From contig JAGVBK010000004.1 in the NCBI GenBank assembly GCA_020059745.1, positions 242,511 to 306,510 of the forward strand: 64,000 bases of DNA. Reading direction: 5' to 3'. The stretch's first letter is position 1, and each line of letters begins with the position of its first letter. Position numbers and translations under genes: made by a program. Positions 35,202-47,089 of the stretch are shown here, piece after piece. A model generated the notes under the pieces. That model was given only the letters and a program-made list of their open reading frames with translations. It ran no database searches and was not told the origin of the DNA. The DNA comes from Candidatus Shapirobacteria bacterium. GTDB lineage: Bacteria; Patescibacteriota; Microgenomatia; UM-FILTER-40-11.

Positions 35202-35278
35202 TGTCGCCAACGAGCGAAAAATCTTGAACTGTTGACAGATACCATTTTAACACACTGGAAACCGCCCACTTTTGACAT

Positions 35279-35511
35279 AACAAAGGTTATTTTGGATGAA
35301 AAATACAAGTATGAGGGCTTGGGAAACGGTGGATTTACGTATCAATACTAATATGGTGATGACTATTGAACTTATTATTTTGGATATTAGTTTTACAGAA
35401 GTATCCGCCCACCTTTACCATCACTTATGGTATAAGCATTAAGTTTTCTTAACTCTTCACTTACGGAGACTTTTAGTAAGGTTCTTACTAATGAAACAAA
35501 GGTTATTTTGG
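35279..35511 (+). repeat. 17-bp perfect direct repeat aacaaaggttattttgg (35279-35295 and 35495-35511)
   Basis: Identical 17-mers 216 bp apart near the left end of the island. Confidence 0.6.
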
Positions 35512-35593
35512 TCAAATCTACATTATCCACTTGGTCTACTGGAGGCGTGTTATTTTCGTTAGCATGGAGAGTATTATTCTCTTTTAGTCCCAT
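35393..35593 (-). CDS. Hypothetical small protein
   Basis: ORF-track ORF only. Confidence 0.2.
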   Translation of the reverse strand: MGLKENNTLHANENNTPPVDQVDNVDLTKITFVSLVRTLLKVSVSEELRKLNAYTISDGKGGRILL

Positions 35594-35668
35594 GCTTCAA
35601 TTTTCATTGTTGCAACGCACTTTTACTATTAGAGGATACTGAAGAAAAGTGAGGAAACTGAGGAGAAA

Positions 35669-36043
35669 TTAACCCATTACGATTATTTTTTGGTCATCAT
35701 CTATAACAAGTTTTGCACCTCGCCATGTTTCTATAGACATTGGTAGCCCTTTTAACTCCAAACGTAGGTGGTTTATTTGTCTCTGTATCCCTTGGTTTAC
35801 TCTTGCCCGTTTCCCTTGGGGCGGATAGTGAGGGTTATAACTTGTCTTGTAAATCTCCTCATAACTACACAGATTGTTGGCATTGTAAAAAAGATGGATA
35901 AAGATTGCACACCGTACCGTTTTACTATCCTTAAAAGTGTGGACGAGTTTCTTCTTATGGTATAAGAATACGCTCCGACCGTCCGTCTCTAGTTTCCAAC
36001 TGTTCAAAGTCACCTTTTTATTAGGAAATACAATAACGTGCAT
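35669..36043 (-). CDS. Winged-helix DNA-binding protein (OmpR/PhoB-type trans_reg_C domain)
   Basis: C-terminal ...INHLRLELKGLPMSIETWRGAKLVID matches the trans_reg_C wing/recognition helix pattern. Confidence 0.5.
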   Translation of the reverse strand: MHVIVFPNKKVTLNSWKLETDGRSVFLYHKKKLVHTFKDSKTVRCAIFIHLFYNANNLCSYEEIYKTSYNPHYPPQGKRARVNQGIQRQINHLRLELKGLPMSIETWRGAKLVIDDDQKIIVMG

Positions 36044-36075
36044 ATTTATATTTATCTTTGTTTACATTATACCAA

Positions 36076-36099
36076 TGAGGCGCCTCAATCTGATATAAT
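36076..36099 (+). promoter_or_regulatory. 12-bp perfect palindrome TGAGGCGCCTCA (candidate operator) followed by TATAAT
   Basis: Palindrome at 36076-36087 and tataat at 36094-36099, in the divergent region between the winged-helix gene and the downstream structured element. Confidence 0.35.
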
Positions 36100-36139
36100 T
36101 TGGGTAACGACCTAAACTCGTAGCAATACGGGCATGGTT

Positions 36140-36280
36140 AAAACCAAAACCCACCATAGGGGAACGAGCGCTCCTCGTTCAGCGTACCTATGGTGGGTCA
36201 CAATCCGAAAGGGTTGTGTGTAGCCGAAAGGCTATGGCGCTGGCGGGGGGCGCTTATTGCGTTTACCCACCTCGCCGACC
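36140..36280 (+). ncRNA. Candidate structured RNA (GC-rich; nested inverted repeats plus two GNRA-tetraloop hairpins), unclassified
   Basis: cccaccatagg ... cctatggtggg 11-bp stem enclosing a gaacgag/ctcgttc hairpin; caatccGAAAgggttg and tagccGAAAggcta tetraloop hairpins; GC well above surroundings. Confidence 0.3.
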
Positions 36281-36328
36281 CTACGCAAATTATTAGTAGT
36301 AATTTGCTACAGAAAGGAAGGTGAGACT

Positions 36329-36535
36329 ATGAGAAAAACCGTACGCTACAAAAAGGGAGACATTGTAGGTAGAAAGTTAAAGGAAGCCACTCTGTTAAGG
36401 GGTTGGAAAATTGTTGAGGAAAAAGAAACAGGAGGATTTAGTGCTGGCAAAGGATTTTTATTAGGTCTGATATTTTTACCTCTAGCCCTTTTTGGTTTTG
36501 GAACTTATGTAGAAGTAACATACGAAAAACAGTAA
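36329..36535 (+). CDS. Small membrane-anchored protein (68 aa, C-terminal TM helix)
   Basis: aaaggaagg RBS; basic N-terminal half; C-terminal hydrophobic helix FLLGLIFLPLALFGFGTYV. Confidence 0.4.
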   Translation: MRKTVRYKKGDIVGRKLKEATLLRGWKIVEEKETGGFSAGKGFLLGLIFLPLALFGFGTYVEVTYEKQ

Positions 36536-36665
36536 ACATTAGTAAGCCTTAATAAATACCCTTCTCAAAATTAGCGAGAGGGGTATTTTTTTGGGCAAAT
36601 TACTAGCAAAGCGCTGGTTTTAGTTCGGTGTTTTCACCAAAAGAAGGATTTTTTATAATATAAAC

Positions 36666-36965
36666 ATGGGTAGAAGTATGAGAGGTGATTACGTAGAGAT
36701 GTTTAAGTTTTACTTTATGGGTATGAGAACTGATACAAATCTATCAATGGATATAGTTGACCCTCTTACCCGTGAAGTTAAACATTTTTCATTGCCTCAA
36801 TATAAGAGAACTAGTTATAGAGATGTAGCAAGGCATTTTGGCTATAGCGTAAGGCAGATTGAAAAAATTGGGAAAAAATACAAGTGGTATTTACAGCGTA
36901 AGTATTTTCATCTAAAAGTTATGAACCGCTTACCGTGGGATAAGGAGTGGATTTACAAAAGTTAA
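36666..36965 (+). CDS. Small helix-turn-helix-like protein
   Basis: SYRDVARHFGYSVRQIEKIGKK resembles a sigma70 region-4/HTH segment. Confidence 0.35.
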   Translation: MGRSMRGDYVEMFKFYFMGMRTDTNLSMDIVDPLTREVKHFSLPQYKRTSYRDVARHFGYSVRQIEKIGKKYKWYLQRKYFHLKVMNRLPWDKEWIYKS

Positions 36966-38293
36966 GCAACTTGTGGTTGTTCTATTAACCAACCGTTTTG
37001 CTTTAAGAAAGCCTTTAATAATTCGTTACTTACATCTTCATAGCCTAAGCTCCAATAGATTTCTTTTATAAAGTTAATAATATAGCCTTGAAGTGCCAAG
37101 TCGTCATATAAAAGAGACGTCTCTATTTCAACTCGCCAAATGTATTTATTCTTTAGTGGCACTTCCTCGTCCTCATGCCAGAACAAACCACCTCTGTAGC
37201 CGTTAGGAACAATACGTTTTAATTGCGCCCCATTTATACCATCTAGTTCTAAATACCCATAAATAGCCCCTTGATAATTAAACAGCTTATAAAAGTTCTT
37301 TAATGCCTTTAGAAACATGATGTAGTACACAGCTATTGCTTCTATATAAATATGCTTTCTTGTAGCGTCTTGGCGCAGTACGTTTTCTGCTAAATACATT
37401 AAGCCTGCCGAAAAGACCTGCTGGCAACTCAAACCGCCATCATAATTATGCTGGAAACGATAGACGCCCTCTTGAATTGGTTTAAGATTTAGGTCTGGGA
37501 AATCTGTACTACCCTTACGATACCTAATTTGTTCAATCTTGGTCTTTATATCATTTGGGTTGCAAAGCGCTCTTTGTGGATAGTAAGGCTGTAAAAGAAT
37601 AGTTAGCATAGAAACCTCCGTGCCTAAAGGTTTCTGGTAATACTGTGAGTTATATTCTGGCGGTTGTTGGCCTTGTGCTTTAGCTTTCTCTATTTGTTTT
37701 TGGTAATTGGCTTTTTCAACTGCTATAAGTTTTAGACGTTTTCTTTCTTCTGCTTTAAGTCCAGCCTCATAATTTTCTTTAGCAATCCTTATATAGTTTT
37801 CTCTTGCTAACCTTGCCTTATCTTTTTTACCTACTAATAACTCTACAGCTTCTGGACTAGCAAGGCTAATTGGGTCTGTAATGTTTCCACTACGAACATA
37901 GATATTAGCCTCATTGTGGACATAATAGGGCGTTCTATCTCCCTCGTAAATCCTTACTAATATAAATACTTTTCCATTTACTTCATTGGTTACGTGCAAG
38001 TCGTAGAGCGGTCTTGGGTCTACTGAAGTAGCATATTGATGTATTTTATCCGCTAACTTGCTATCAAAAGTAATGCCGTCAAAAACTACTGGTTTACCAG
38101 ATTTGTCCTCTTCTACGCCTACTATGATTACGCCACCTCTGCTATTGGAGAATGAGGCAAAATGCTTGGCTAAACCCTTACTTGGAAGTTCTTTTTTGTA
38201 ATCTAACTGAAATCCCTCAATGTAACCCTGTTTACAGAACTCAACTACCTCTTCAAATGTAAAAGTATCTATAGGTTTGCTTAGTATTTGCAT
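36962..38293 (-). CDS. AlbA_2 (Schlafen-like putative DNA-binding) domain protein with a coiled-coil linker and an uncharacterized roughly 230-aa C-terminal domain
   Basis: N-terminal FEEVVEFCKQGYIEGFQLDYKKEL...FSNSRGGVIIVGVEED matches the AlbA_2 pattern (E..E.K ... N..GG.i.iGv.d); EKR-rich coiled coil at about aa 150-215. Confidence 0.6.
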   Translation of the reverse strand: MQILSKPIDTFTFEEVVEFCKQGYIEGFQLDYKKELPSKGLAKHFASFSNSRGGVIIVGVEEDKSGKPVVFDGITFDSKLADKIHQYATSVDPRPLYDLHVTNEVNGKVFILVRIYEGDRTPYYVHNEANIYVRSGNITDPISLASPEAVELLVGKKDKARLARENYIRIAKENYEAGLKAEERKRLKLIAVEKANYQKQIEKAKAQGQQPPEYNSQYYQKPLGTEVSMLTILLQPYYPQRALCNPNDIKTKIEQIRYRKGSTDFPDLNLKPIQEGVYRFQHNYDGGLSCQQVFSAGLMYLAENVLRQDATRKHIYIEAIAVYYIMFLKALKNFYKLFNYQGAIYGYLELDGINGAQLKRIVPNGYRGGLFWHEDEEVPLKNKYIWRVEIETSLLYDDLALQGYIINFIKEIYWSLGYEDVSNELLKAFLKQNGWLIEQPQVA

Positions 38294-38321
38294 AATTCAA
38301 TGTCATGAAATTGAGTTAGTT

Positions 38322-40577
38322 TTAGCTTCTAAAGCGTAGTTTAATATAATCCTGTGCTTGTGAGCCTTGCAGTTCAGAGGTAGAGTTACCAGCACGGACA
38401 TAGAAGCGCTGACTTTGACCGTCCTTAACGTAGATAGGTACTCTAGATGGCAAGCAATCTATAGCCAGCATACGCTTGCCCTCATGGTCTTCAAATCTTG
38501 GGTGGAGGTATACCGTCCAATGTGAGCCTATCCTGTCATTAAGCAGATTTACTAAATGTAAATGTAATTTATCATCGTTTTCAAAGCCGTCTACACTTAA
38601 ACCTAATGCTTCTTTATCGTCTGAAACACCGATTAGAAGCGTCCCACCTTTACTATTTAGAAAACCAGCAATAGTTTTTAGTACGCTTAGTTCTATTCTT
38701 GGGTCTGGTTGTCCAGTATGCAAATTGGTTCTTAGAGTGGACTTAAACTCAACTGCACCCGTCTCACCTTGCGCAATAATATCAGCGATTGATAAATGAG
38801 ATATTTCATCTTCTTGTTTTAGGTCTGATTTTAGCTTGTGGTATGCGTCTGCAATTATCTGTGAAATACGCTCTCTTCTTCTCATTAAAAACTCTCTGTA
38901 CTCCATTTCTTCCCAATTATCTGGGAGACCGTGCCAGTAATACATCTTTTTAATTTCTTGAGGTGAAAAGCGAGATACTATTTGTGGTACATACTCCTTA
39001 GGGTCTGTATCAGAAATTGCGGAGTTATCATTCCATTCCACAATTGCATAGTTAGCAATTTGGTTAGTGTCTCTAAGGTCTATTATGCCTTGGGTTTTTA
39101 GATATGCTTTGGGGTACAGATGATGTCTCTCCAGAGCCGAGCGAGTGGACTTAATGGAAGCGTCTATTAAATCTGCAACTTTTTGCTTTGAAAATAATGC
39201 GTCTGCCTCTAGTAACACCAACGAAGCATAAAAGGCAAAAAGAGACGGGCTACGTGGTGAGGATGTAGCAAGGCTATTTGGTAAATTGATAGACCAATAG
39301 TCATCCGTAAATACTTCCGCACAAATACGCTCTAACTCACCTATAAACTCGTCTGCCTCTATTACATTTCTAAACCGTGCTAAATCAAACTCCATAGCGC
39401 TCTCTGGAGAGCCTGTAAATCGTCCTGTTAAGCTGGACATAAAGAACCAACGGGCGATTACTTGCCTTAACTTAAACTCTTCTACCTTGTACTCTGTACG
39501 CCCGATAAGGTAGAGAGTATAGGCAAACATTAAATTAGTCTGAGAACTTATGTAGTCACTATTACGGTAGCCAGATAGTGCTATAGCTTTGAGGAAATCG
39601 TGCCAGTAGGTAAGGTTTAATACACGGGATTGGGCATTCTTTAGTATTTCAAATTGGTCAATTCTTCTTTGCTCACTAAACTCACCCGTCTCCAAGTCCT
39701 TACCTCTTAAGATTGAATAGACGTAGTGCAATCTTGCTCTCTTAAAGCCTAAGCCAACACTTACTCTTAGCAATTGGTCTGGGTCTGGTTGAGAAACTAA
39801 ATTATAAGGGGATGGCTGACCAGTTGAGGGAGTTTTTGCCATACGGCAAAAGTCCTCTAGCATAGTCCTACCCTCATCCCAGAATACGGACATTAAAGTA
39901 AGAATAAAATCTGACTGATTAAGTGGTTTACCCTCACTATTTATACGGACAAATATCTCTGCCACTTGCTCCTCTGTAATAGCAGACGATAATTCCAATG
40001 CCGTAAAAGGGAAATTAAGTAGGTTAGATAGTCGTGTAATTGACTGTCGTATTTTCTTTACATCTTCTGGCGTAAGGTTAGCAACCTCCTGATTATTCTG
40101 GATATACGTATCTACAAGTTCAAAAATATCTGTAGATTTATTCCAGAGCATGGAGATATTGGGGATATAAGACCTATCTTTTTTAATGGCGGCGTCCGAA
40201 ACTGCAAAGCGTTCCGTGATAGGATTAAATGATATTTCTATCTTTTCCTTTTGGTAATTTTCTCTCACCACCTCTACACCTTGGATAACGGCAAAGAGTG
40301 ATGTAAGTCTTTGTTGACCATCTACAATAAGTAATCTTGCAGGTTTTTGCTTGGTGTCTGCTCCAATTTGTCTTGCTTCCTCAACAAAAGCATTTTGCCA
40401 AAATAGTAAGTAGCCAATGGGGTAACCCCGATACATACTGTCAAAGAGGTCTCTAACTTTGGTATCTTTCCAGACAAAAGGTCGCTGTATGTCTGGCAAG
40501 CCTATTTCGCCCATCTCAATATAGTTGACGAGCGTACCCAAGTCGTAGCGTACTTCTTTGAATAATCTATCTGCCAT
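38322..40577 (-). CDS. GmrSD-family type IV restriction-like nuclease (DUF262 + DUF1524) fused to a C-terminal AlbA_2/Schlafen-like domain
   Basis: DUF262 motifs IQRPFVW and DGQQRLTSL; HNH-like DUF1524 segment ERHHLYPKAYL...NYAIVEWNDN; C-terminal GETGAVEFKSTL...IAGFLNSKGGTLLIGVSDD AlbA_2 signature. Confidence 0.7.
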   Translation of the reverse strand: MADRLFKEVRYDLGTLVNYIEMGEIGLPDIQRPFVWKDTKVRDLFDSMYRGYPIGYLLFWQNAFVEEARQIGADTKQKPARLLIVDGQQRLTSLFAVIQGVEVVRENYQKEKIEISFNPITERFAVSDAAIKKDRSYIPNISMLWNKSTDIFELVDTYIQNNQEVANLTPEDVKKIRQSITRLSNLLNFPFTALELSSAITEEQVAEIFVRINSEGKPLNQSDFILTLMSVFWDEGRTMLEDFCRMAKTPSTGQPSPYNLVSQPDPDQLLRVSVGLGFKRARLHYVYSILRGKDLETGEFSEQRRIDQFEILKNAQSRVLNLTYWHDFLKAIALSGYRNSDYISSQTNLMFAYTLYLIGRTEYKVEEFKLRQVIARWFFMSSLTGRFTGSPESAMEFDLARFRNVIEADEFIGELERICAEVFTDDYWSINLPNSLATSSPRSPSLFAFYASLVLLEADALFSKQKVADLIDASIKSTRSALERHHLYPKAYLKTQGIIDLRDTNQIANYAIVEWNDNSAISDTDPKEYVPQIVSRFSPQEIKKMYYWHGLPDNWEEMEYREFLMRRRERISQIIADAYHKLKSDLKQEDEISHLSIADIIAQGETGAVEFKSTLRTNLHTGQPDPRIELSVLKTIAGFLNSKGGTLLIGVSDDKEALGLSVDGFENDDKLHLHLVNLLNDRIGSHWTVYLHPRFEDHEGKRMLAIDCLPSRVPIYVKDGQSQRFYVRAGNSTSELQGSQAQDYIKLRFRS

Positions 40578-40671
40578 ATTTATCTTTATAACTATAGTCC
40601 AAAGTCTTTAACACTTGTATTTAATCGGTTGATTTTTTGTAACAAATGCTAAATAATGATAAATAGATTAT

Positions 40672-40839
40672 ATGGCAAAAGATGACCTTTTTTCAATAGA
40701 AGAAGTAGCTAAAACGCTTAAAGTCTCATACATAACCGTTTACAGGTGGATTAGGGCTAACAAACTGCCGTCTGTTAAGGCGGGTAAGCAATATAGAATA
40801 AAAAAAGTAGACCTAGACGCTTTTCTAAAAGTTAAATAA
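40672..40839 (+). CDS. Excisionase/AlpA-family helix-turn-helix protein (HTH_17-like)
   Basis: 55 aa; SIEEVAKTLKVSYITVYRWIRANKLPSVKAGKQYRIKKVDLDAF matches the excisionase-family HTH pattern; not in the ORF track (under 60 aa). Confidence 0.55.
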   Translation: MAKDDLFSIEEVAKTLKVSYITVYRWIRANKLPSVKAGKQYRIKKVDLDAFLKVK

Positions 40840-40847
40840 AGATAAAT

Positions 40848-42698
40848 ATGAGCGACCAAAACAACAAAATTAACAAAAAAGTTGAAATTGACTTGAGTGA
40901 GCTACTTAAAAAGGATGCTCCCTATCTTGTAGAAGATGGCAAGGTAAACATAGAAAAATTAAAAAGCTTACTAACTGGCAAAACTACCGAAAAAGAAGAC
41001 GATAGATTTTATTTTAACTGGGCTGGCAAGGATAAAGTTTTCCAAGCAATCCAAGCACCCGCATTCTCAACTCTAGCGCCTCAAAAGGACAAATCTATTG
41101 GTTGGGACGAGACCGAGAACTTAATGATAGTAGGTGAAAATCTAGAGACCTTAAAACTCCTCCTAAAACCCTACTTTGGCAAAGTTAAAATCATTTATAT
41201 TGACCCACCCTACAACACAGGTAAAGACTTTATCTACAAAGACGACTTTTCCGCACCTCTTAAAGACTACCTAGAGCGTACGGGACAAAAAGGAACCGCT
41301 GGAGAAAGACTAACGACTAATTCAGAAACTAACGGGCGCTACCATTCCGACTGGCTTAATTTCATGTACCCTCGTTTATTTATGGCTAGAAATCTACTAC
41401 GTGAAGATGGACTAATTTTTGTTTCAATTGACGAAAATGAACATCAACATTTAAGAATGCTTATGGATGAGGTTTTTGGCGAAGATAATTTTATTGCAGA
41501 ATTAGTCTGGCAAAAGAAAAAAGGCGGAAGTAATGACGCAAAATACATAGCTTTAGAACATGAGTATGTAATTTTTTATGCAAAAACCAAAACTACATTA
41601 GAAAAATTATTTATACCCCACACTGAAGAATATCTAGAGAGGTACAACCAAGAGGATAAAATAGGGCGTTTTTATTGGGATACATTCAAAAGAAAAAGTG
41701 GAAAGCAGTATTACGCAATAAAAGCACCAGATAATACCAAAATAGAGTTTGATGAAAACAATAACCGTATAAGTTGGTTAAGGTCAGAAAAAAGATTTTT
41801 AGACGACTTAGAAAAGGGTGAGGTTAAGTTTGAAAAAAATGGTGACGGATGGTCTGTGTTATTCAAACAACGGGAGCCAAAGGGTAAAAAACCGAGAAGT
41901 TTAATGACCGACGTAGGAACAACAAGTGCTGGAAGTGATGAGTTGCTGGATATTTTTAAGAAAAACATATTTGATAATCCCAAACCCTCTACACTAATCA
42001 AGCATATTCTAAGCATTTCACAGGATAAAGACGCTGTTGTGTTAGATTTTTTTGCAGGCTCTGGAACTACAGCAAAAGCTGTATATGAACTTAATAAGGA
42101 TGATGAGGGTTTTAGAAAATACATCTTAGTCCAAATCCAAGAGCCAGTAGACATCAGCAAAGAAACTGGCAAAAACGCAAAGGAATTAGGTTTTAATTCT
42201 GTAGATGAAATTTGTGTTGAAAGAATAAAACGAGAAAATGAAAAGCTAAAGGGAAGTAAAGGAGATATTGGGTTTAAGGTGTTTAAGCTATCTCACTCAA
42301 ACTTTAACCTAAAGGAAGAGTTTGAACTAACCGAGAATAAAGACTTGGGAGAGTTAAAAAGTAACTACCTAAAAGAGTTAGGACTTTATGTAGACCAGCC
42401 CACCGTAGCTACAGCAAATACTTTGGATATCGTCTACGAGATAATCTTAAAAAATGGCTTTTCTCTTAACTCCAAAATTGAAGAATTAAAACTAGGGTCT
42501 AATAGTTTCTATAAGGTAAACGACGCCGAAAACGAGCTGGAGATATACATATCTTTAGACGCAAAAATTGAGGATGGGTCTGTAGAGGCTATACGCACCA
42601 CAGAGTACAAAGGCAAGACGTTTGCATTTTATGACAACGCCCTCACCGATAGCCAAAAGATAAACCTCAATACTTTTGTGAAATTGCAGGTAATTTAA
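40848..42698 (+). CDS. mod: Type III restriction-modification Mod subunit (N6-adenine DNA methyltransferase, beta class)
   Basis: Motif IV IYIDPPYN precedes motif I DFFAGSGTT; adjacent to a helicase-nuclease gene. Confidence 0.85.
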   Translation: MSDQNNKINKKVEIDLSELLKKDAPYLVEDGKVNIEKLKSLLTGKTTEKEDDRFYFNWAGKDKVFQAIQAPAFSTLAPQKDKSIGWDETENLMIVGENLETLKLLLKPYFGKVKIIYIDPPYNTGKDFIYKDDFSAPLKDYLERTGQKGTAGERLTTNSETNGRYHSDWLNFMYPRLFMARNLLREDGLIFVSIDENEHQHLRMLMDEVFGEDNFIAELVWQKKKGGSNDAKYIALEHEYVIFYAKTKTTLEKLFIPHTEEYLERYNQEDKIGRFYWDTFKRKSGKQYYAIKAPDNTKIEFDENNNRISWLRSEKRFLDDLEKGEVKFEKNGDGWSVLFKQREPKGKKPRSLMTDVGTTSAGSDELLDIFKKNIFDNPKPSTLIKHILSISQDKDAVVLDFFAGSGTTAKAVYELNKDDEGFRKYILVQIQEPVDISKETGKNAKELGFNSVDEICVERIKRENEKLKGSKGDIGFKVFKLSHSNFNLKEEFELTENKDLGELKSNYLKELGLYVDQPTVATANTLDIVYEIILKNGFSLNSKIEELKLGSNSFYKVNDAENELEIYISLDAKIEDGSVEAIRTTEYKGKTFAFYDNALTDSQKINLNTFVKLQVI

Positions 42699-42701
42699 CC
42701 T

Positions 42702-45308
42702 ATGCTAAAGCTCAAGTTTAACCCCAACCTAGACTATCAACAGGACGCTATAAAAGCTGTAACTGATATTTTTGAGGGACAGGTAAAGGTAGAGAAAAAG
42801 CATATTTTCCAAGTCATACCGAACAAACTTACCTTAGAAAAAGACACACTCCTTACAAACCTCCAGACGGTACAGGAAAACAACCATCTAGCCAAAAGCC
42901 CAGACTTTTCTGTACCCCTTAACGTAACTCTAGAGATGGAAACGGGTACAGGCAAAACCTATGTGTATCTACGCACTATCTTAGAACTTTACCAGAAGTA
43001 CGGGCTATCCAAGTTTATTATCGTCGTCCCTACGGTAGCAATTAAAGAGGGTATTATGAAGTCCCTAGCTATCACCAAAGACCATTTTAAGGGTCTCTAT
43101 AACAACTTATCCTACGAATACTACGAGTATGTATCTACTAAGCTCATGACCGTCCGTATGTTTGCGCAGTCCTCTCACTTGCAAATTATGGTCATCACAA
43201 AAGACGCTTTTAATAAAGATAAAAATATCATCCATAACAACCATGACCGTATGGGCGATAAACCAATTTCGCTTATCCAAAAGACTAACCCTATCGTTAT
43301 TCTAGACGAACCGCAAAAGATGGGCGGAGAGGCTACTCAATGGGGCATAAAAGAGCTTAACCCCTTAATCGTACTTAGATACTCTGCAACCCATAGGGAT
43401 ATTGAAAATCTAGTCTACAAACTTACTCCTTTTGACGCCTACGCAAAAGGTTTAGTAAAAAAGATTGAGTTAGCAACCGTCGTAGAGGAAAGCGACCCAA
43501 ACACTAAAAAAATTATCCTAGAAAACATCTACTCCTCTGGAAGTAGCCTAAAGGCAAAGTTAAAGGTTTTCATAAAGCAAGCGACGTCTGTACAACTAAA
43601 AACCATTACCGTAGGCTCTGGTGATAACTTGGCTACTAAGTCAAAAAATCCCTACTATGATGGGTTTACCGTTTCTGAAATTAACCTAGGCAATAACTAT
43701 ATCCTCTTCTCAAACGGATTAAAGGTACACGTAGGACAATCGTCCGTAAATGAGGATGAGATTGTACGAATGATGGTACGAGAGATAGTCTTAGAACACT
43801 TGGAAAAAAAGCGCAAGTTTAACCCTCTGGGAATTAAGACCCTTTCTCTCTTCTTTATCCACCGTGTAGACGATTATTTACCCGCCGACGGCTGGCTACG
43901 GAAAATGTTTGAGGAAGAGTACCAAAAGGCTACTAGCACCAATTACCAAGAGTTTAAGACCGCCAGACCAGATAAGGTACATTCTGGGTACTTTTCCGAG
44001 ATGAAAAAAACCTCATCTATAGAAAATGACGAAAAAGCATATGAGCTGATTATGAAAGATAAGGAAAAACTACTCTCCTTAGATAACCCCGTGGAGTTTA
44101 TCTTTTCCCATTCTGCCTTACGTGAGGGCTGGGACAACCCAAATATCTTTAATATCTGCACCCTTGCCTACTCAACCTCTGATATTAAAAAAAGGCAGGA
44201 AATTGGACGTGGGCTACGTTTGGTTGTAAACCAGCAGGGAGACCGCATTTACGACCGAGATATAAACGTACTTACCGTAGTTACCAACGAAAGCTACCAG
44301 AATTATGTATCTGAATTGCAGACCGAGTTTAGGGATGAAGCAGGAGAAAGCGCCCCACCTGTAGAGCATAAGAAAAAACGAGTTAGCCTAACCCTAAAAG
44401 ATGACGCATTAGCTAACAAGAGCTTCCAAAGCCTTTGGAAGCTACTAGCAAAAAGGGCTAAGTTTGTTGTCTCTATGCAAGAAGAGGAAATAATCAGTAA
44501 GTGTGTAGATGAAATTAACAAAATTGACGAAAGTAATATCCGAGAGATACGGGTACACATTACTAAAACAGGTATAGACACGCTTCTCTTGGATGACATT
44601 AGGGGTAATATCGTAAGCGACCGAAGCTACGAAATCGGAGCCACCAAGCAACTACCTAACATTATTGCCCTCCTCCAAGCTGATACTAAGCTCACAAAGA
44701 AAACCCTACTAGCCATACTGCAAAAGGTAAATAATTTTGACCTGTTTTTCAAAAACTCCTACCAGTATGCAAGCCTCGTTTCCTACGCCATTAAAACCGT
44801 CATATCAGACCTAGCCTCTAAAGGTATTAGCTACGTAGAGATTAGCGACGATTACGGGCTATCGCTTTTTAATAAGGAAGTCCAGACCTACGAAAAATAC
44901 CTAGTAAAGCTAGAGAGTGCCAAAACGCTCTACAAAACAACCAACAACGGACAAAAGGACGCCGTGATAATTGACCCCAGTCCGTCTTTAGAGGGCGTAT
45001 CACAACCAGAAAAAAGGTTTGCCGAGAACGCAGACCGTAACGATACCGTTAAGTTTTTCTTTAAGCTCCCAGATACTTACTCTATAGCTACCCCAGCAGG
45101 GCAATATACGCCAGATTGGGCGGTAGTAGTGGAAAATGGCGACCATAACCAAGTCTATTTTGTAGCTGAAACCAAGGATACTAATAACATTAGTAGTCTC
45201 CGTCAAGAAGAGCAAATAAAAATACTCTCTGCACGGGCTATGTTTAAGGAAATCATGCCAGAGGTCGTTTTCAAAGCTCCCGTAAGCGAGTTTAGCGACC
45301 TTTCATGA
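42702..45308 (+). CDS. res: Type III restriction enzyme Res subunit (SF2 helicase + PD-(D/E)xK nuclease)
   Basis: Walker A ETGTGKTY; DEAH-like ILDEPQK; C-terminal PDW...VAETKD nuclease motif. Confidence 0.8.
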   Translation: MLKLKFNPNLDYQQDAIKAVTDIFEGQVKVEKKHIFQVIPNKLTLEKDTLLTNLQTVQENNHLAKSPDFSVPLNVTLEMETGTGKTYVYLRTILELYQKYGLSKFIIVVPTVAIKEGIMKSLAITKDHFKGLYNNLSYEYYEYVSTKLMTVRMFAQSSHLQIMVITKDAFNKDKNIIHNNHDRMGDKPISLIQKTNPIVILDEPQKMGGEATQWGIKELNPLIVLRYSATHRDIENLVYKLTPFDAYAKGLVKKIELATVVEESDPNTKKIILENIYSSGSSLKAKLKVFIKQATSVQLKTITVGSGDNLATKSKNPYYDGFTVSEINLGNNYILFSNGLKVHVGQSSVNEDEIVRMMVREIVLEHLEKKRKFNPLGIKTLSLFFIHRVDDYLPADGWLRKMFEEEYQKATSTNYQEFKTARPDKVHSGYFSEMKKTSSIENDEKAYELIMKDKEKLLSLDNPVEFIFSHSALREGWDNPNIFNICTLAYSTSDIKKRQEIGRGLRLVVNQQGDRIYDRDINVLTVVTNESYQNYVSELQTEFRDEAGESAPPVEHKKKRVSLTLKDDALANKSFQSLWKLLAKRAKFVVSMQEEEIISKCVDEINKIDESNIREIRVHITKTGIDTLLLDDIRGNIVSDRSYEIGATKQLPNIIALLQADTKLTKKTLLAILQKVNNFDLFFKNSYQYASLVSYAIKTVISDLASKGISYVEISDDYGLSLFNKEVQTYEKYLVKLESAKTLYKTTNNGQKDAVIIDPSPSLEGVSQPEKRFAENADRNDTVKFFFKLPDTYSIATPAGQYTPDWAVVVENGDHNQVYFVAETKDTNNISSLRQEEQIKILSARAMFKEIMPEVVFKAPVSEFSDLS

Positions 45309-45469
45309 TTAGTCAAAAAAGTGTAGACGAGTTAAAGAAGATATTTAAGGAGGAGTACAAATCCGACTTAACAGACGAGGAAGCCAAGGAAACGGGTCAA
45401 AAGTTGGTGGACTACTTTAGTCTTTTAATAGAGATTGATAAAAAGGCTAAAATTGTTAGGAAAAAATGA
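45305..45469 (+). CDS. Hypothetical 54-aa protein overlapping the res stop (ATGA)
   Basis: Open frame with start-stop overlap coupling; no recognizable family. Confidence 0.25.
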   Translation: MISQKSVDELKKIFKEEYKSDLTDEEAKETGQKLVDYFSLLIEIDKKAKIVRKK

Positions 45470-45478
45470 AATATAAAT

Positions 45479-47035
45479 ATGTATGAAGATACAGAAGAAA
45501 TTGACATTACTAAACTCAAATACGTGCTGTATGCCCGCAAGTCCACGGATGACAGCTCCCGCCAGTTAAGGTCTATTGACGACCAAATAGCCGAATGTTT
45601 AGCACTTGCAAGGAGGCTAAATCTTAATGTTTCTCAACCCATAATAGAAACCAAATCTGCTAAAAGACCTAATCAACGCCCCTTATTTAGACAAATCCTA
45701 AGTGATATTAGAAAAGGCGTCTATGATGGTATCTTGGCGTGGAACCCAGACCGCCTTGCACGAAATATGAAAGAAGGTGGAGAAATCATAGACATGATAG
45801 ATGAAGGGTATATAAAAGACCTCAAGTTTGTCACCCACCATTTCACAAGCGACGCTAACGGAAAAATGTTACTTGGTATGGCTTTTGTGTTATCAAAACA
45901 ATACTCTGACGACCTTTCCCAAAAAGTTACCCGTGGAGTACGCAGGAGTTTTGCAGAGGGTAAGTCCCCAGTCCCTAAACATGGGTATATAAGAGACGAG
46001 AACGGCGTATATGTACCCGACCCAGTTACCTATCCTTTGATTGTTAAAGCATGGGAAATGCGAGCAGAGGGAACGAGCATAGAAGAAATTGTTAAATACT
46101 TAAATGACAACAGCTATAGACGTATTGTCAAAAAATCAGGTCGTAAAGTCAAAATGACGAAACAAATCCTTAGCGACCTGTTTAACGACCCTTTTTACTA
46201 TGGTGTCCTAATGCAAGCAGGAGGAGAAGCAGACTTAATAAACCTTAATAACTTCCAACCAGCTATAGATAAGGCTACGTATATTAAAGTACAAAGTCTA
46301 GCTTACCGAAAGATTAAGCCTAATAAGCAACATAAAGTAGCCTTTTATCCTTTAAGAGCTATGGTGGTTTGCTTATATTGTGGTAGAAATATGTACGTAG
46401 CACCCTCCACAGGACACACAGGGCAAAGATACCTAAATTACAGGTGTGATAACGATGGTTGTACAAGACCTAAGAAATCCATACGAGCTAAGGTGATTTT
46501 TGATTTTATTTATCAATACCTAGAAGACGGTCTTAATTTTACGGAAGAAGATTACAACCTCTACTACAAAGACCTAGAAAAAATTACAGAAGAAAAGCGT
46601 GAGCAAATTAGAATGAAAATACATTCAAAACGAAGTGTACTACTTAACGCAAGAAGAGACCTTAAAGACCGTGCATTAGCTCTTACCGACTTAAATAACA
46701 AAATTAGCGATACAGTTAGGAAAGTAACAGAGGATAAAATAGCTGAATTGAAAAACCTAGAAATAGACTTAACTGAGGAGATTGCTGAACTAGAGAAGCA
46801 AATTAGAGACCCCGAAGAGGACAGACTGACCCTCCAGCAATTCTTGAACTTGTCAAAAAATGCCTCTGTTATCGTCCAATCTGCCGATGTGGTAGTGAAA
46901 GATGAGATATGCCGACTTATATTCTTGAACTTAACAGTTGATGAGGAGAAAGTGGCGTCATATCAACTAAAAGAACCGTTTGCGACACTCCTAAAACACC
47001 GCCAAATCGTATCTAGTCGGGGAAGCGGGACTTGA
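45479..47035 (+). CDS. Large serine recombinase (resolvase/invertase N-terminal domain + recombinase domain + zinc ribbon + coiled coil)
   Basis: YARKSTDDSS...SIDDQ catalytic-serine motif, DRLARN, zinc ribbon CLYCGRN...YRCDNDGC, C-terminal coiled coil. Confidence 0.85.
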   Translation: MYEDTEEIDITKLKYVLYARKSTDDSSRQLRSIDDQIAECLALARRLNLNVSQPIIETKSAKRPNQRPLFRQILSDIRKGVYDGILAWNPDRLARNMKEGGEIIDMIDEGYIKDLKFVTHHFTSDANGKMLLGMAFVLSKQYSDDLSQKVTRGVRRSFAEGKSPVPKHGYIRDENGVYVPDPVTYPLIVKAWEMRAEGTSIEEIVKYLNDNSYRRIVKKSGRKVKMTKQILSDLFNDPFYYGVLMQAGGEADLINLNNFQPAIDKATYIKVQSLAYRKIKPNKQHKVAFYPLRAMVVCLYCGRNMYVAPSTGHTGQRYLNYRCDNDGCTRPKKSIRAKVIFDFIYQYLEDGLNFTEEDYNLYYKDLEKITEEKREQIRMKIHSKRSVLLNARRDLKDRALALTDLNNKISDTVRKVTEDKIAELKNLEIDLTEEIAELEKQIRDPEEDRLTLQQFLNLSKNASVIVQSADVVVKDEICRLIFLNLTVDEEKVASYQLKEPFATLLKHRQIVSSRGSGT

Positions 47036-47089
47036 ACCCACGACCTCACGCACCCCATGCGTGCGCGCTACCAACTGCGCCATTCCCCG
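47017..47089 (-). tRNA. tRNA-Pro (anticodon GGG)
   Basis: Minus-strand cloverleaf: acceptor CGGGGAA/TTCCCCG, D-arm GCGC-AGTTGGTA-GCGC, anticodon arm CACGC-ATGGGGT-GCGTG, T-arm GTGGG-TTCAAGT-CCCGC; the 3' end overlaps the recombinase stop. Confidence 0.85.

Follow-up and report, generated by a model that had tools for sequence, protein, structure and literature searches.

What is the GC-rich, apparently folded element that lies between a small divergent gene and a short open reading frame (ORF) in a genome of Candidatus Shapirobacteria, and what could it do for the genes around it? The window analysed here is a stretch of 64,000 nucleotides (nt) of contig JAGVBK010000004.1 (assembly GCA_020059745.1, positions 242,511 to 306,510), and an earlier note, made from the letters alone, had proposed for positions 36044-36535 of this window a folded functional RNA with nested helices and GNRA-capped hairpins, which might serve as a regulated noncoding RNA, as a cis-regulatory leader, or as the RNA partner of a small membrane toxin. 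A cmscan of the whole window with Rfam 15 bore out the folded RNA: the only non-tRNA match above gathering score was the LOOT RNA (RF03000) at 36109-36236 on the forward strand, matched over its full length (model positions 1-121 of 121) at 73.9 bits (gathering score 46.4; E = 4.9e-12 for the whole window). We regard the element as almost certainly LOOT, a catalogued orphan structured RNA; the window copy adds one member to the family already catalogued and does not differ from it in kind. As to its role, we put a probability of about 50% on LOOT being a cis-acting 5' leader of the downstream gene with a built-in conditional terminator.

The core consists of a 5' domain (P1 and P2), an A-rich linker, P3 with its inner hairpin P3a, and the hairpins P4 and P5, and the minimum free energy (MFE) fold of 36107-36236 yields all these consensus helices at -58.3 kcal/mol (coordinates in Table 1). 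Most of this anatomy had been read correctly by eye: the outer helix described as 11 bp (CCCACCATAGG/CCTATGGTGGG, 36150-36160/36187-36197) is P3, which reaches 12 bp once A36149-U36198 is counted, the 7-bp hairpin that it encloses (36162-36180) is P3a, the two adjacent GAAA-capped hairpins are P4 and P5, and the G-rich segment that follows them (36237-36253) is present as well. The P1/P2 domain had been overlooked, as had the complementarity of the G-rich segment to the inner hairpin region. Three non-canonical pairs of the inner helix in the cmscan output are a matter of alignment register only, and the window copy forms its own 7-bp hairpin. All the invariant nucleotides of LOOT are found in the window copy, namely CCUAAAC (36111-36117) and GCAUGG (36132-36137), which face each other across the P1/P2 internal loop, the AAAA linker (36140-36143) and the GAAA loop of P4 (36207-36210); among 26 diverse LOOTs the AA of the P4 loop is invariant, and the P5 loops vary (UUCG or GNRA). 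The fold of 36100-36330 reaches -98.1 kcal/mol versus -69.4 +/- 4.5 kcal/mol for shuffled sequences (z = -6.4; none of 200 shuffles as good), and the GC content of the element is 0.52 versus 0.40 for the window.

LOOT originates from a 2017 catalogue of 224 candidate RNAs, and its main text does not mention LOOT (Weinberg et al. 2017; PMC5737381). It was presented in Rfam 14 as a 'metagenomic-based RNA' (PMC7779021) and is named in the lists of two method papers (PMC7657543, PMC11701678). Our literature search found no functional study of LOOT and no paper discussing its role.

For comparison, at least ~93 genomic and at least 103 metagenomic LOOT copies were collected, both of these large samples being the matches listed. 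A degenerate-pattern search of IMG/VR gave seven LOOTs, all confirmed by the Rfam gathering score, which locus L103 also passes; a more specific pattern gave at least ~85 LOOTs in species-representative genomes, and a third pattern, demanding neither tail nor T-run, gave at least 103 LOOT-like copies in JGI metagenomes. Since a second IMG/VR pattern (GCATGG..AAAA...GGGCTTTTTG) that omitted CCTAAAC produced 11 new loci and no LOOT among them, CCTAAAC is a robust anchor of the family. BLASTN of 36050-36330 against GenBank phages gave no match. LOOT was found mainly in the candidate phyla radiation (CPR)/Patescibacteria: the labels of 59 true genomic loci listed comprise 47 CPR/Patescibacteria (Saccharibacteria, Paceibacterota, Gottesman-, Taylor-, Nomura-, Vogel- and Roizman-bacteria, among others), six unclassified and six other, and for these last six mis-binning is possible because all are metagenome bins. 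The closest relative of the window LOOT among the matches listed is that of L103, from Candidatus Gottesmanbacteria UBA6580.

The LOOT RNA does not stop at P5, where the Rfam model ends. LOOTs run on for ~20 nt into a G-rich tail, typically GGUGGGCUUUUUG, which ends at a T-run, and the last 14 nt ahead of the T-run can pair with the apex of P3, where they match the 5' strand of the inner hairpin, the loop and some of the 3' strand; the uninterrupted complementarity typically amounts to 11-13 bp. RNAalifold, given a plain MAFFT alignment of 26 diverse copies, predicted this tail helix unaided, with compensatory changes in 8/8 pairs and 93% of cells paired (slid controls for the whole predicted structure: ~40%). 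The MAFFT alignment is poor in P3, and alignment-free duplex tests were therefore used: in 93/93 genomic LOOTs the duplex between the apical region and the copy's own tail (mean -20.7 kcal/mol) was more stable than that with tails of other types (mean -11.6 kcal/mol; 65 distinct tails). Many of the pairs are G.U, and the pairing is therefore strand-specific. In the metagenome sample, which was picked without a tail criterion, a T-run was present in 93/103 copies, and 85 of these 93 had a duplex of -15 kcal/mol or better. The local hairpins that the same strands could form are weak (mean -5.2 kcal/mol for the tail itself and -5.8 kcal/mol for the inner hairpin), and nested MFE folding paired the tail with the apical region in 56/93 LOOTs. 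Two genomes carried two copies each (L151 and L172 in one Taylorbacteria metagenome-assembled genome, L109 and L173 in one bin), whose inner hairpins differ and are each matched by the tail of the same copy, which is what intramolecular or at least copy-specific pairing would lead one to expect. The G-rich tail is thus part of the LOOT RNA, and the covarying helix that it forms adjoins the T-run. The helix either coexists with P3 as a pseudoknot or takes the place of P3/P3a; in nested folds it excludes P3a.

The window copy illustrates how these pairings might compete. Its core alone adopts the Rfam fold; when the tail is added (to 36262), the MFE flips to a 19-bp helix (36166-36185/36237-36255; -69.9 kcal/mol) that closes a loop holding P4 and P5 and stops at the U-rich tract UUAUUGCGUUU. 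When 36105-36345 is folded, the tail instead pairs with a complementary segment downstream of the U-rich tract, which we call the anti-tail, and the Rfam fold is back (-96.6 kcal/mol). The tail in the window therefore has three mutually exclusive partners, and a terminator scan flags 36236-36254 plus TATTGCGTTT. The tail of L103 differs from that of the window at several positions, and both pairings are retained through wobble changes. Across the family, a downstream complement of the copy's own tail (-12 kcal/mol or better) was present in 37/93 loci versus a mean cross-control value of 7/93. A different arrangement is seen in a subgroup of loci (L071, L104, L136, L137, L143, L144, L196 and L198), which carry UUUUUGCGU and, after ~25 nt, ACGCAAAAG just before the start codon and downstream of the T-run; here the U-run could pair with the A-rich stretch beside the translation start, and the window has a short version of this pairing (UUGCGU 36257-36262/ACGCAA 36283-36288).

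The surroundings of LOOT, surveyed at 92 loci with crude scripts for ORF calling and hydrophobicity, favour the leader among the options that had been offered for this element. The upstream gene is divergent in 59/84 loci (70%; p = 4e-14 versus an expectation of 0.3), the downstream gene is co-directional in 77/86 (90%), and an ATG-initiated ORF of at least 45 amino acids (aa) starts at a median of 36 nt after the T-run (at most 50 nt in 74/88 loci), which leaves no room for a separate promoter of the ORF. The downstream families are diverse (tRNA_anti-like, SNase, DUF805, bPH_2, zinc ribbons and PG_binding; proteins of 64 to 907 aa). A hydrophobic segment, either transmembrane or signal-like, occurs in 47/60 (78%) of the close downstream proteins versus 7/84 of the upstream ones (Fisher p = 1.5e-18). 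The small membrane protein that the earlier note had linked to the element, a 68-aa product with one C-terminal hydrophobic helix, is one case of this general pattern. This suggests that LOOT heads a transcription unit of genes for envelope or secreted proteins.

How could such a leader work? The core, made up of P1/P2, P3 with P3a, P4 and P5, would fold first, and it would probably be clamped by docking of the invariant P4 GAAA loop into the invariant, receptor-like CCUAAAC/GCAUGG loop. The G-rich tail, which emerges ~20 nt later, could then invade the P3a region, and the resulting long helix, ending exactly at the U-rich tract, would act as a terminator, either pseudoknotted with P3 or formed at the expense of P3. 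If a compact core, stabilised by a ligand, an ion or a protein, resisted this invasion, the polymerase would read on, the anti-tail would capture the tail, and the mRNA for the 68-aa membrane protein would be made. Promoter, LOOT, ORF and terminator would together behave as a portable cassette on an island. From the folds and the comparative context we infer the role of the helix as a terminator stem, its competition with the core fold, and the existence of a signal that biases the two states.

Several points weigh against a conditional terminator in cis. The transcription start, the 3' ends and the read-through of LOOT are likewise what we infer; ViennaRNA does not score pseudoknots, and a switch and a static pseudoknot therefore look alike in nested folding; the pattern that gave the genomic copies demanded the T-run, and the context survey relied on the crude scripts mentioned above. 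The anti-tail exists in only ~40% of loci, and the U-rich tract of the window's LOOT subtype is interrupted, so that termination in the window copy may be weak or inefficient. No ligand can be guessed, because the downstream genes share no family, and the tetraloop-receptor interpretation accounts for most of the conserved nucleotides, which leaves little obvious ligand pocket. Finally, Rfam types LOOT as 'Gene; sRNA', and a self-terminated, stable small RNA (sRNA) fits the same anatomy.

A stand-alone sRNA acting in trans is the most serious of the rival explanations, although we consider it doubtful. The tail helix and the U-run would then be an efficient terminator, the pseudoknot would protect the 3' end, and the downstream gene would be expressed by leakage or be incidental. 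Beside the Rfam type, this would be in line with the promoter-like element of LOOT's own, the near-universal T-run, the great stability of the duplex (~-20 kcal/mol), the lack of a common downstream family, and the presence of several copies in some genomes, each with its matching tail. On the other hand, an sRNA of this kind does not call for an ORF so close behind the T-run that no promoter fits between them, for the bias in the orientation of both neighbours, for the enrichment of hydrophobic segments in the downstream products, or for complementarity that is conserved past the T-run in ~40% of loci; and no candidate trans target turned up, though none was searched for.

We consider it unlikely that LOOT is merely a constitutive structural module at the 5' end of a mobile 'moron' cassette, which would stabilise or insulate the mRNA and allow partial termination without sensing anything. 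The extreme 5' position on the transcript, the presence or absence of the cassette as a whole, and the great diversity of the cargo on islands with a serine recombinase (present in 37/85 loci) would all suit such a module, but a simple stabiliser needs neither the invariant receptor-like and GAAA elements nor three exclusive covarying partners. Returning to the conditional terminator, its more specific form can be put forward only tentatively: LOOT might be an unrecognised class of riboswitch-like attenuator, mostly from CPR/Patescibacteria, that resides on mobile islands and phages, often along with a large serine recombinase gene, and in which a clamped, aptamer-like core competes with a long-range terminator and a signal drives the expression of diverse envelope or secreted cargo.

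Table 1. Features of the LOOT locus and of the island that carries it (positions in the window)
Feature	Position	Strand	Basis or remark
LOOT core: P1, P2, A-rich linker, P3 with inner hairpin P3a, P4 (GAAA loop), P5 (GAAA loop)	36109-36236	+	cmscan; MFE of core gives Rfam fold
P1	36109-36112/36136-36139	+	LOOT 5' domain
P2	36117-36122/36127-36132	+	LOOT 5' domain
P1/P2 internal loop CCUAAAC...GCAUGG	36111-36137	+	invariant columns in both LOOT alignments
P3, 12 bp	36149-36160/36187-36198	+	encloses P3a; cmscan and folding
P3a, 7 bp, GAACGAG/CTCGTTC, loop CGCUC	36162-36168/36174-36180	+	cmscan and folding
P4	36199-36218 (GAAA loop 36207-36210)	+	cmscan and folding
P5	36220-36235 (GAAA loop 36226-36229)	+	cmscan and folding
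3' tail GCGCUGGCGGGGGGCGC, then U-rich tract UUAUUGCGUUU	36237-36264	+	complementary to 36166-36185 (P3a loop, 3' strand and flank); outside Rfam model
Anti-tail GCGUUUACCCACCUCGCC, third partner of the tail, downstream of the U-rich tract	36259-36276	+	folding of 36105-36345
Candidate operator, perfect 12-bp palindrome TGAGGCGCCTCA	36076-36087		unique in window, just upstream of -10
Extended -10 element TGaTATAAT (TG 36091-92, TATAAT 36094-36099)	36091-36099	+	read from sequence
Divergent 124-aa gene, stand-alone OmpR/PhoB-type winged-helix protein, candidate repressor of the LOOT promoter	35669-36043	-	predicted fold
Ribosome-binding site GGAAGGUGAG (36316-36325) and 68-aa ORF (36329-36535)	36316-36535	+	basic N-terminus, one C-terminal hydrophobic helix
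Putative intrinsic terminator of the module, CCCUUCUC-loop-GAGAGGGG, then U7	36559-36592	+	read from sequence
Promoter-LOOT-ORF-terminator module	36086-36607	+	missing from related island L222
Integrated island carrying the module, ~11.8 kb to tRNA end at 47089	35203-47035		homology with L103 and L219 starts at 35203
Schlafen/AlbA_2 protein	36962-38293	-	Pfam
GmrSD_N+AlbA_2 protein	38322-40577	-	Pfam
Type III restriction-modification pair	mod 40848-42698, res 42702-45308		Pfam
Large serine recombinase, Resolvase+Recombinase+Zn_ribbon_recom	45479-47035		Pfam

The promoter region is consistent with a leader at the very start of its transcript. The palindrome followed by TATAAT is present as first described, and the palindrome TGAGGCGCCTCA, for which 0.06 matches with at most one mismatch are expected by chance in the window, is identical in L103 and L219-L221. 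A simple -35/-10 scan skips this promoter for want of a good -35 element; judged by the extended -10, transcription would start near 36105-36107, which would place LOOT at the extreme 5' end of the RNA. Most LOOT loci have a -10-like TAnnnT at -35 to -30. In 60/89 LOOT loci a box ACAAYTNAATA lies 14-24 nt upstream of CCTAAAC (for example, L026 4975-5000), directly after the -10-like hexamer, where it spans the presumed transcription start at a variable distance from LOOT; it could be a promoter or initiator element, an operator, or the 5' end of the RNA. The box is absent from the window, whose subtype has the extended -10 and the palindrome instead.

The divergent gene had been assigned to a winged-helix (Trans_reg_C) family, and this assignment holds for the fold and not for the family match. 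The 124-aa protein has no match in Pfam (Trans_reg_C included, at E <= 0.1), PHROGs or the PDB sequences, but its AlphaFold2 model (predicted local distance difference test, pLDDT, 90.6) has an N-terminal beta-sheet, a three-helix bundle and a C-terminal beta-hairpin wing, and its top 50 Foldseek matches in the PDB are all OmpR/PhoB-type DNA-binding domains of the OmpR family (probability ~1, TM-score up to 0.68). The predicted model identifies the protein as one with the OmpR-type winged-helix fold. Its homologs are only close ones (69-90% identity) and always stand beside the LOOT module or its remnant. Because the fold matches and the palindrome is kept in the relatives, the palindrome is plausible as the operator of this protein, which probably represses the LOOT promoter there.

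The 68-aa ORF is, as had been stated, preceded by a strong ribosome-binding site (also given as GGAAGGTGAG, 36316-36325) and encodes a product with a basic N-terminus and a single C-terminal hydrophobic helix. Its homologs form 22 clusters with 72-100% identity, all of 67-71 aa save the window's own ORF call of 92 aa, and most belong to early operons of phages, in which they abut or overlap the gene before them. Judged from these sequences, the ORF is a real conserved gene of phage origin. We considered it as the fixed partner of LOOT and rejected this, as phage loci carry its homologs without LOOT. The closest homologs outside the window's island family are in L082 and L083 (93% protein identity), where the gene adjoins a type III restriction enzyme with ~91% DNA identity to that of the window and where the promoter region contains a divergent HTH_3 (cI-like) gene but neither LOOT nor the winged-helix gene; this cargo is here placed under a different control region.

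These observations bear on the toxin-antitoxin option, in which the 68-aa protein would be the toxin and LOOT the RNA that counteracts it, as in type I (or type III-like) pairs. We find it hardly credible, even though the product is small with one hydrophobic helix, the island is rich in defence genes, and another motif from the 2017 catalogue, abiF/RCd22, has turned out to be an antitoxin (PMC12373285). A type I pair is not supported, because LOOT lies on the sense strand and upstream of the ORF, and no antisense element was identified; six loci have homologs of the 68-aa gene in phage early operons that lack LOOT; at other loci LOOT stands before genes for unrelated proteins (64-907 aa), many of which have signal-peptide-like N-termini; and no array of RNA repeats as in type III systems was seen.

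The module is present or absent as a whole. The related island L222 aligns to window positions 35202-36085 and 36608-36959, and exactly 36086-36607 are missing from it (L222 3871-4001), which makes promoter, LOOT, ORF and terminator a discrete cassette. L223 (1839-2239) has lost the counterpart of 36026-36193 and with it the promoter and the first two-thirds of LOOT, and the 68-aa gene is not called in it; this is probably a decaying copy of the cassette. Sub-threshold Rfam matches to rli38 and NsiR1 (36504-36657) were dismissed, as they reflect only the terminator hairpin of the module. Two further small ORFs flank it, one of 66 aa (35393-35593, reverse strand) downstream of the winged-helix gene, which is called as a gene in L219-L222, and one of 99 aa (36666-36965, forward strand), which is conserved in L103 and L222. 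Searches of Pfam and PHROGs with the 68-, 99- and 66-aa ORFs gave nothing except a sub-threshold HTH_28 for the 99-aa ORF.

The cassette resides on an integrated defence island at tRNA-Pro. The left end of the island follows directly on the stop codon of yceG, and on the right it ends with the large serine recombinase gene, which shares its last 20 nt with the 3' end of tRNA-Pro(GGG) (47016-47089, reverse strand). Similarly, the 3' end of the recombinase gene in L139 abuts a tRNA-Arg; a tRNA within 8 kb was found in ~20/60 LOOT loci, an occasional feature and not a rule. A large serine recombinase occurs within the locus (at most 8 kb) in 37/85 cases (44%) and is the immediate divergent neighbour of LOOT in 15/84, mostly at a distance of ~95-195 nt (L026, L027, L108, L131, L136, L137, L196, L198 and others). 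These frequencies raise the question of whether LOOT serves the recombinase itself, be it as a cofactor or guide RNA or, in the form of single-stranded DNA, as a folded site; bridge RNAs (IS110) and attC sites (integrons) would be the models. We judge this very improbable: more than half of the loci have no recombinase nearby, that of the window is 9 kb away, and the promoter, the T-run and the GAAA/receptor-type architecture point to an RNA with a role in cis.

Viral contigs with LOOT encode terminases, methylases and, in three cases (L027 2333-3731, L041 8093-9145 and L004 5791-7071), a reverse transcriptase. The reverse-transcriptase gene of L004 immediately precedes LOOT, with which it shares a strand, and next to that of L027 is a small ORF that resembles, by eye, an accessory (Avd-type) gene of diversity-generating retroelements (DGRs). 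A general link of LOOT to reverse transcriptases or DGRs (3/7 viral contigs) was rejected, since 0/85 genomic loci had a reverse-transcriptase homolog. Upstream of the island, window positions 142-33137 hold two very long ORFs (1144 and 1256 aa) followed by a dense run of small co-directional ORFs, which, by their rpoB/rpoC size and the ribosomal-protein-cluster-like layout, look like a conserved core region; RecA, RecX and RNase Y (Pfam) are encoded just past tRNA-Pro.

Taken together, the orphan motif can now be placed mainly in CPR/Patescibacteria, which are mostly uncultured and whose gene regulation is almost unknown. It is tied to integrative islands and phages, its structure is extended by a covarying helix reaching to the T-run, and a concrete hypothesis can be attached to it, conditional termination in which the core fold and the tail compete. 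Should a signal be identified, LOOT would represent a class of regulatory RNAs belonging to the mobile elements of CPR bacteria; if there is none, it would still be a useful marker for cargo cassettes on such islands.

Compared with the family as catalogued, the window copy has the same P1-P5, CCUAAAC/GCAUGG loop, A-rich linker and P4 GAAA loop as RF03000, and what is added here to the Rfam model is the conserved tail, the T-run and the downstream ORF; compared with most LOOT copies, the window subtype lacks the ACAAYTNAATA box and has an interrupted U-tract. As in phage 'moron' cassettes, 36086-36607 have their own promoter and terminator, are present or absent as a block and carry an ORF of phage origin, whereas a conserved structured leader RNA is no defining part of a moron. 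The abiF motif, RCd22 of Clostridioides difficile, lies upstream of a prophage gene, down-regulates it transcriptionally and neutralises AbiF by direct binding (PMC12373285). LOOT shares its origin in the 2017 catalogue with this motif, which belongs to one protein family, whereas LOOT precedes unrelated proteins.

In its conserved nucleotides, LOOT has a parallel in the 11-nt GAAA tetraloop receptor, CCUAAG/UAUGG, of the group I intron P4-P6 domain, reportedly described by Costa and Michel in 1995 and Cate et al. in 1996. Judged by sequence resemblance, the CCUAAAC/GCAUGG loop of LOOT may be a variant of this receptor that docks the P4 GAAA loop. CCUAAA/CAUGG is identical to it at 9/11 positions, both differences fall in one wobble pair (an isosteric change of G.U to A.C), and the receptor-like positions of LOOT, being invariant, cannot covary. 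The c-di-GMP-I class (GEMM-I) controls surface and secreted genes, for example one for a collagen adhesion protein (PMC4933901). By analogy only, LOOT resembles it as a putative tetraloop-receptor leader RNA controlling diverse surface or secreted protein genes; its architecture and conserved nucleotides differ from those of GEMM-I, and no GEMM family of Rfam matched in the window.

The pbuE adenine ON switch is one of the terminating riboswitches in which terminator and aptamer have a strand in common or the terminator sits within the aptamer. Others are the HMP-PP (hydroxymethylpyrimidine pyrophosphate) 'terminator-embedded aptamer' (PMC6478431) and guanidine-IV (PMC11611296). Unlike these, LOOT has downstream genes that form no metabolic regulon and suggest no ligand, its switch is a prediction from sequence, and its competing helix spans ~75 nt and would become a pseudoknot if P3 stays formed. 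Like them, LOOT is a folded leader domain, one strand of which could pair alternatively with a segment just upstream of a U-run, with a co-directional ORF close behind.

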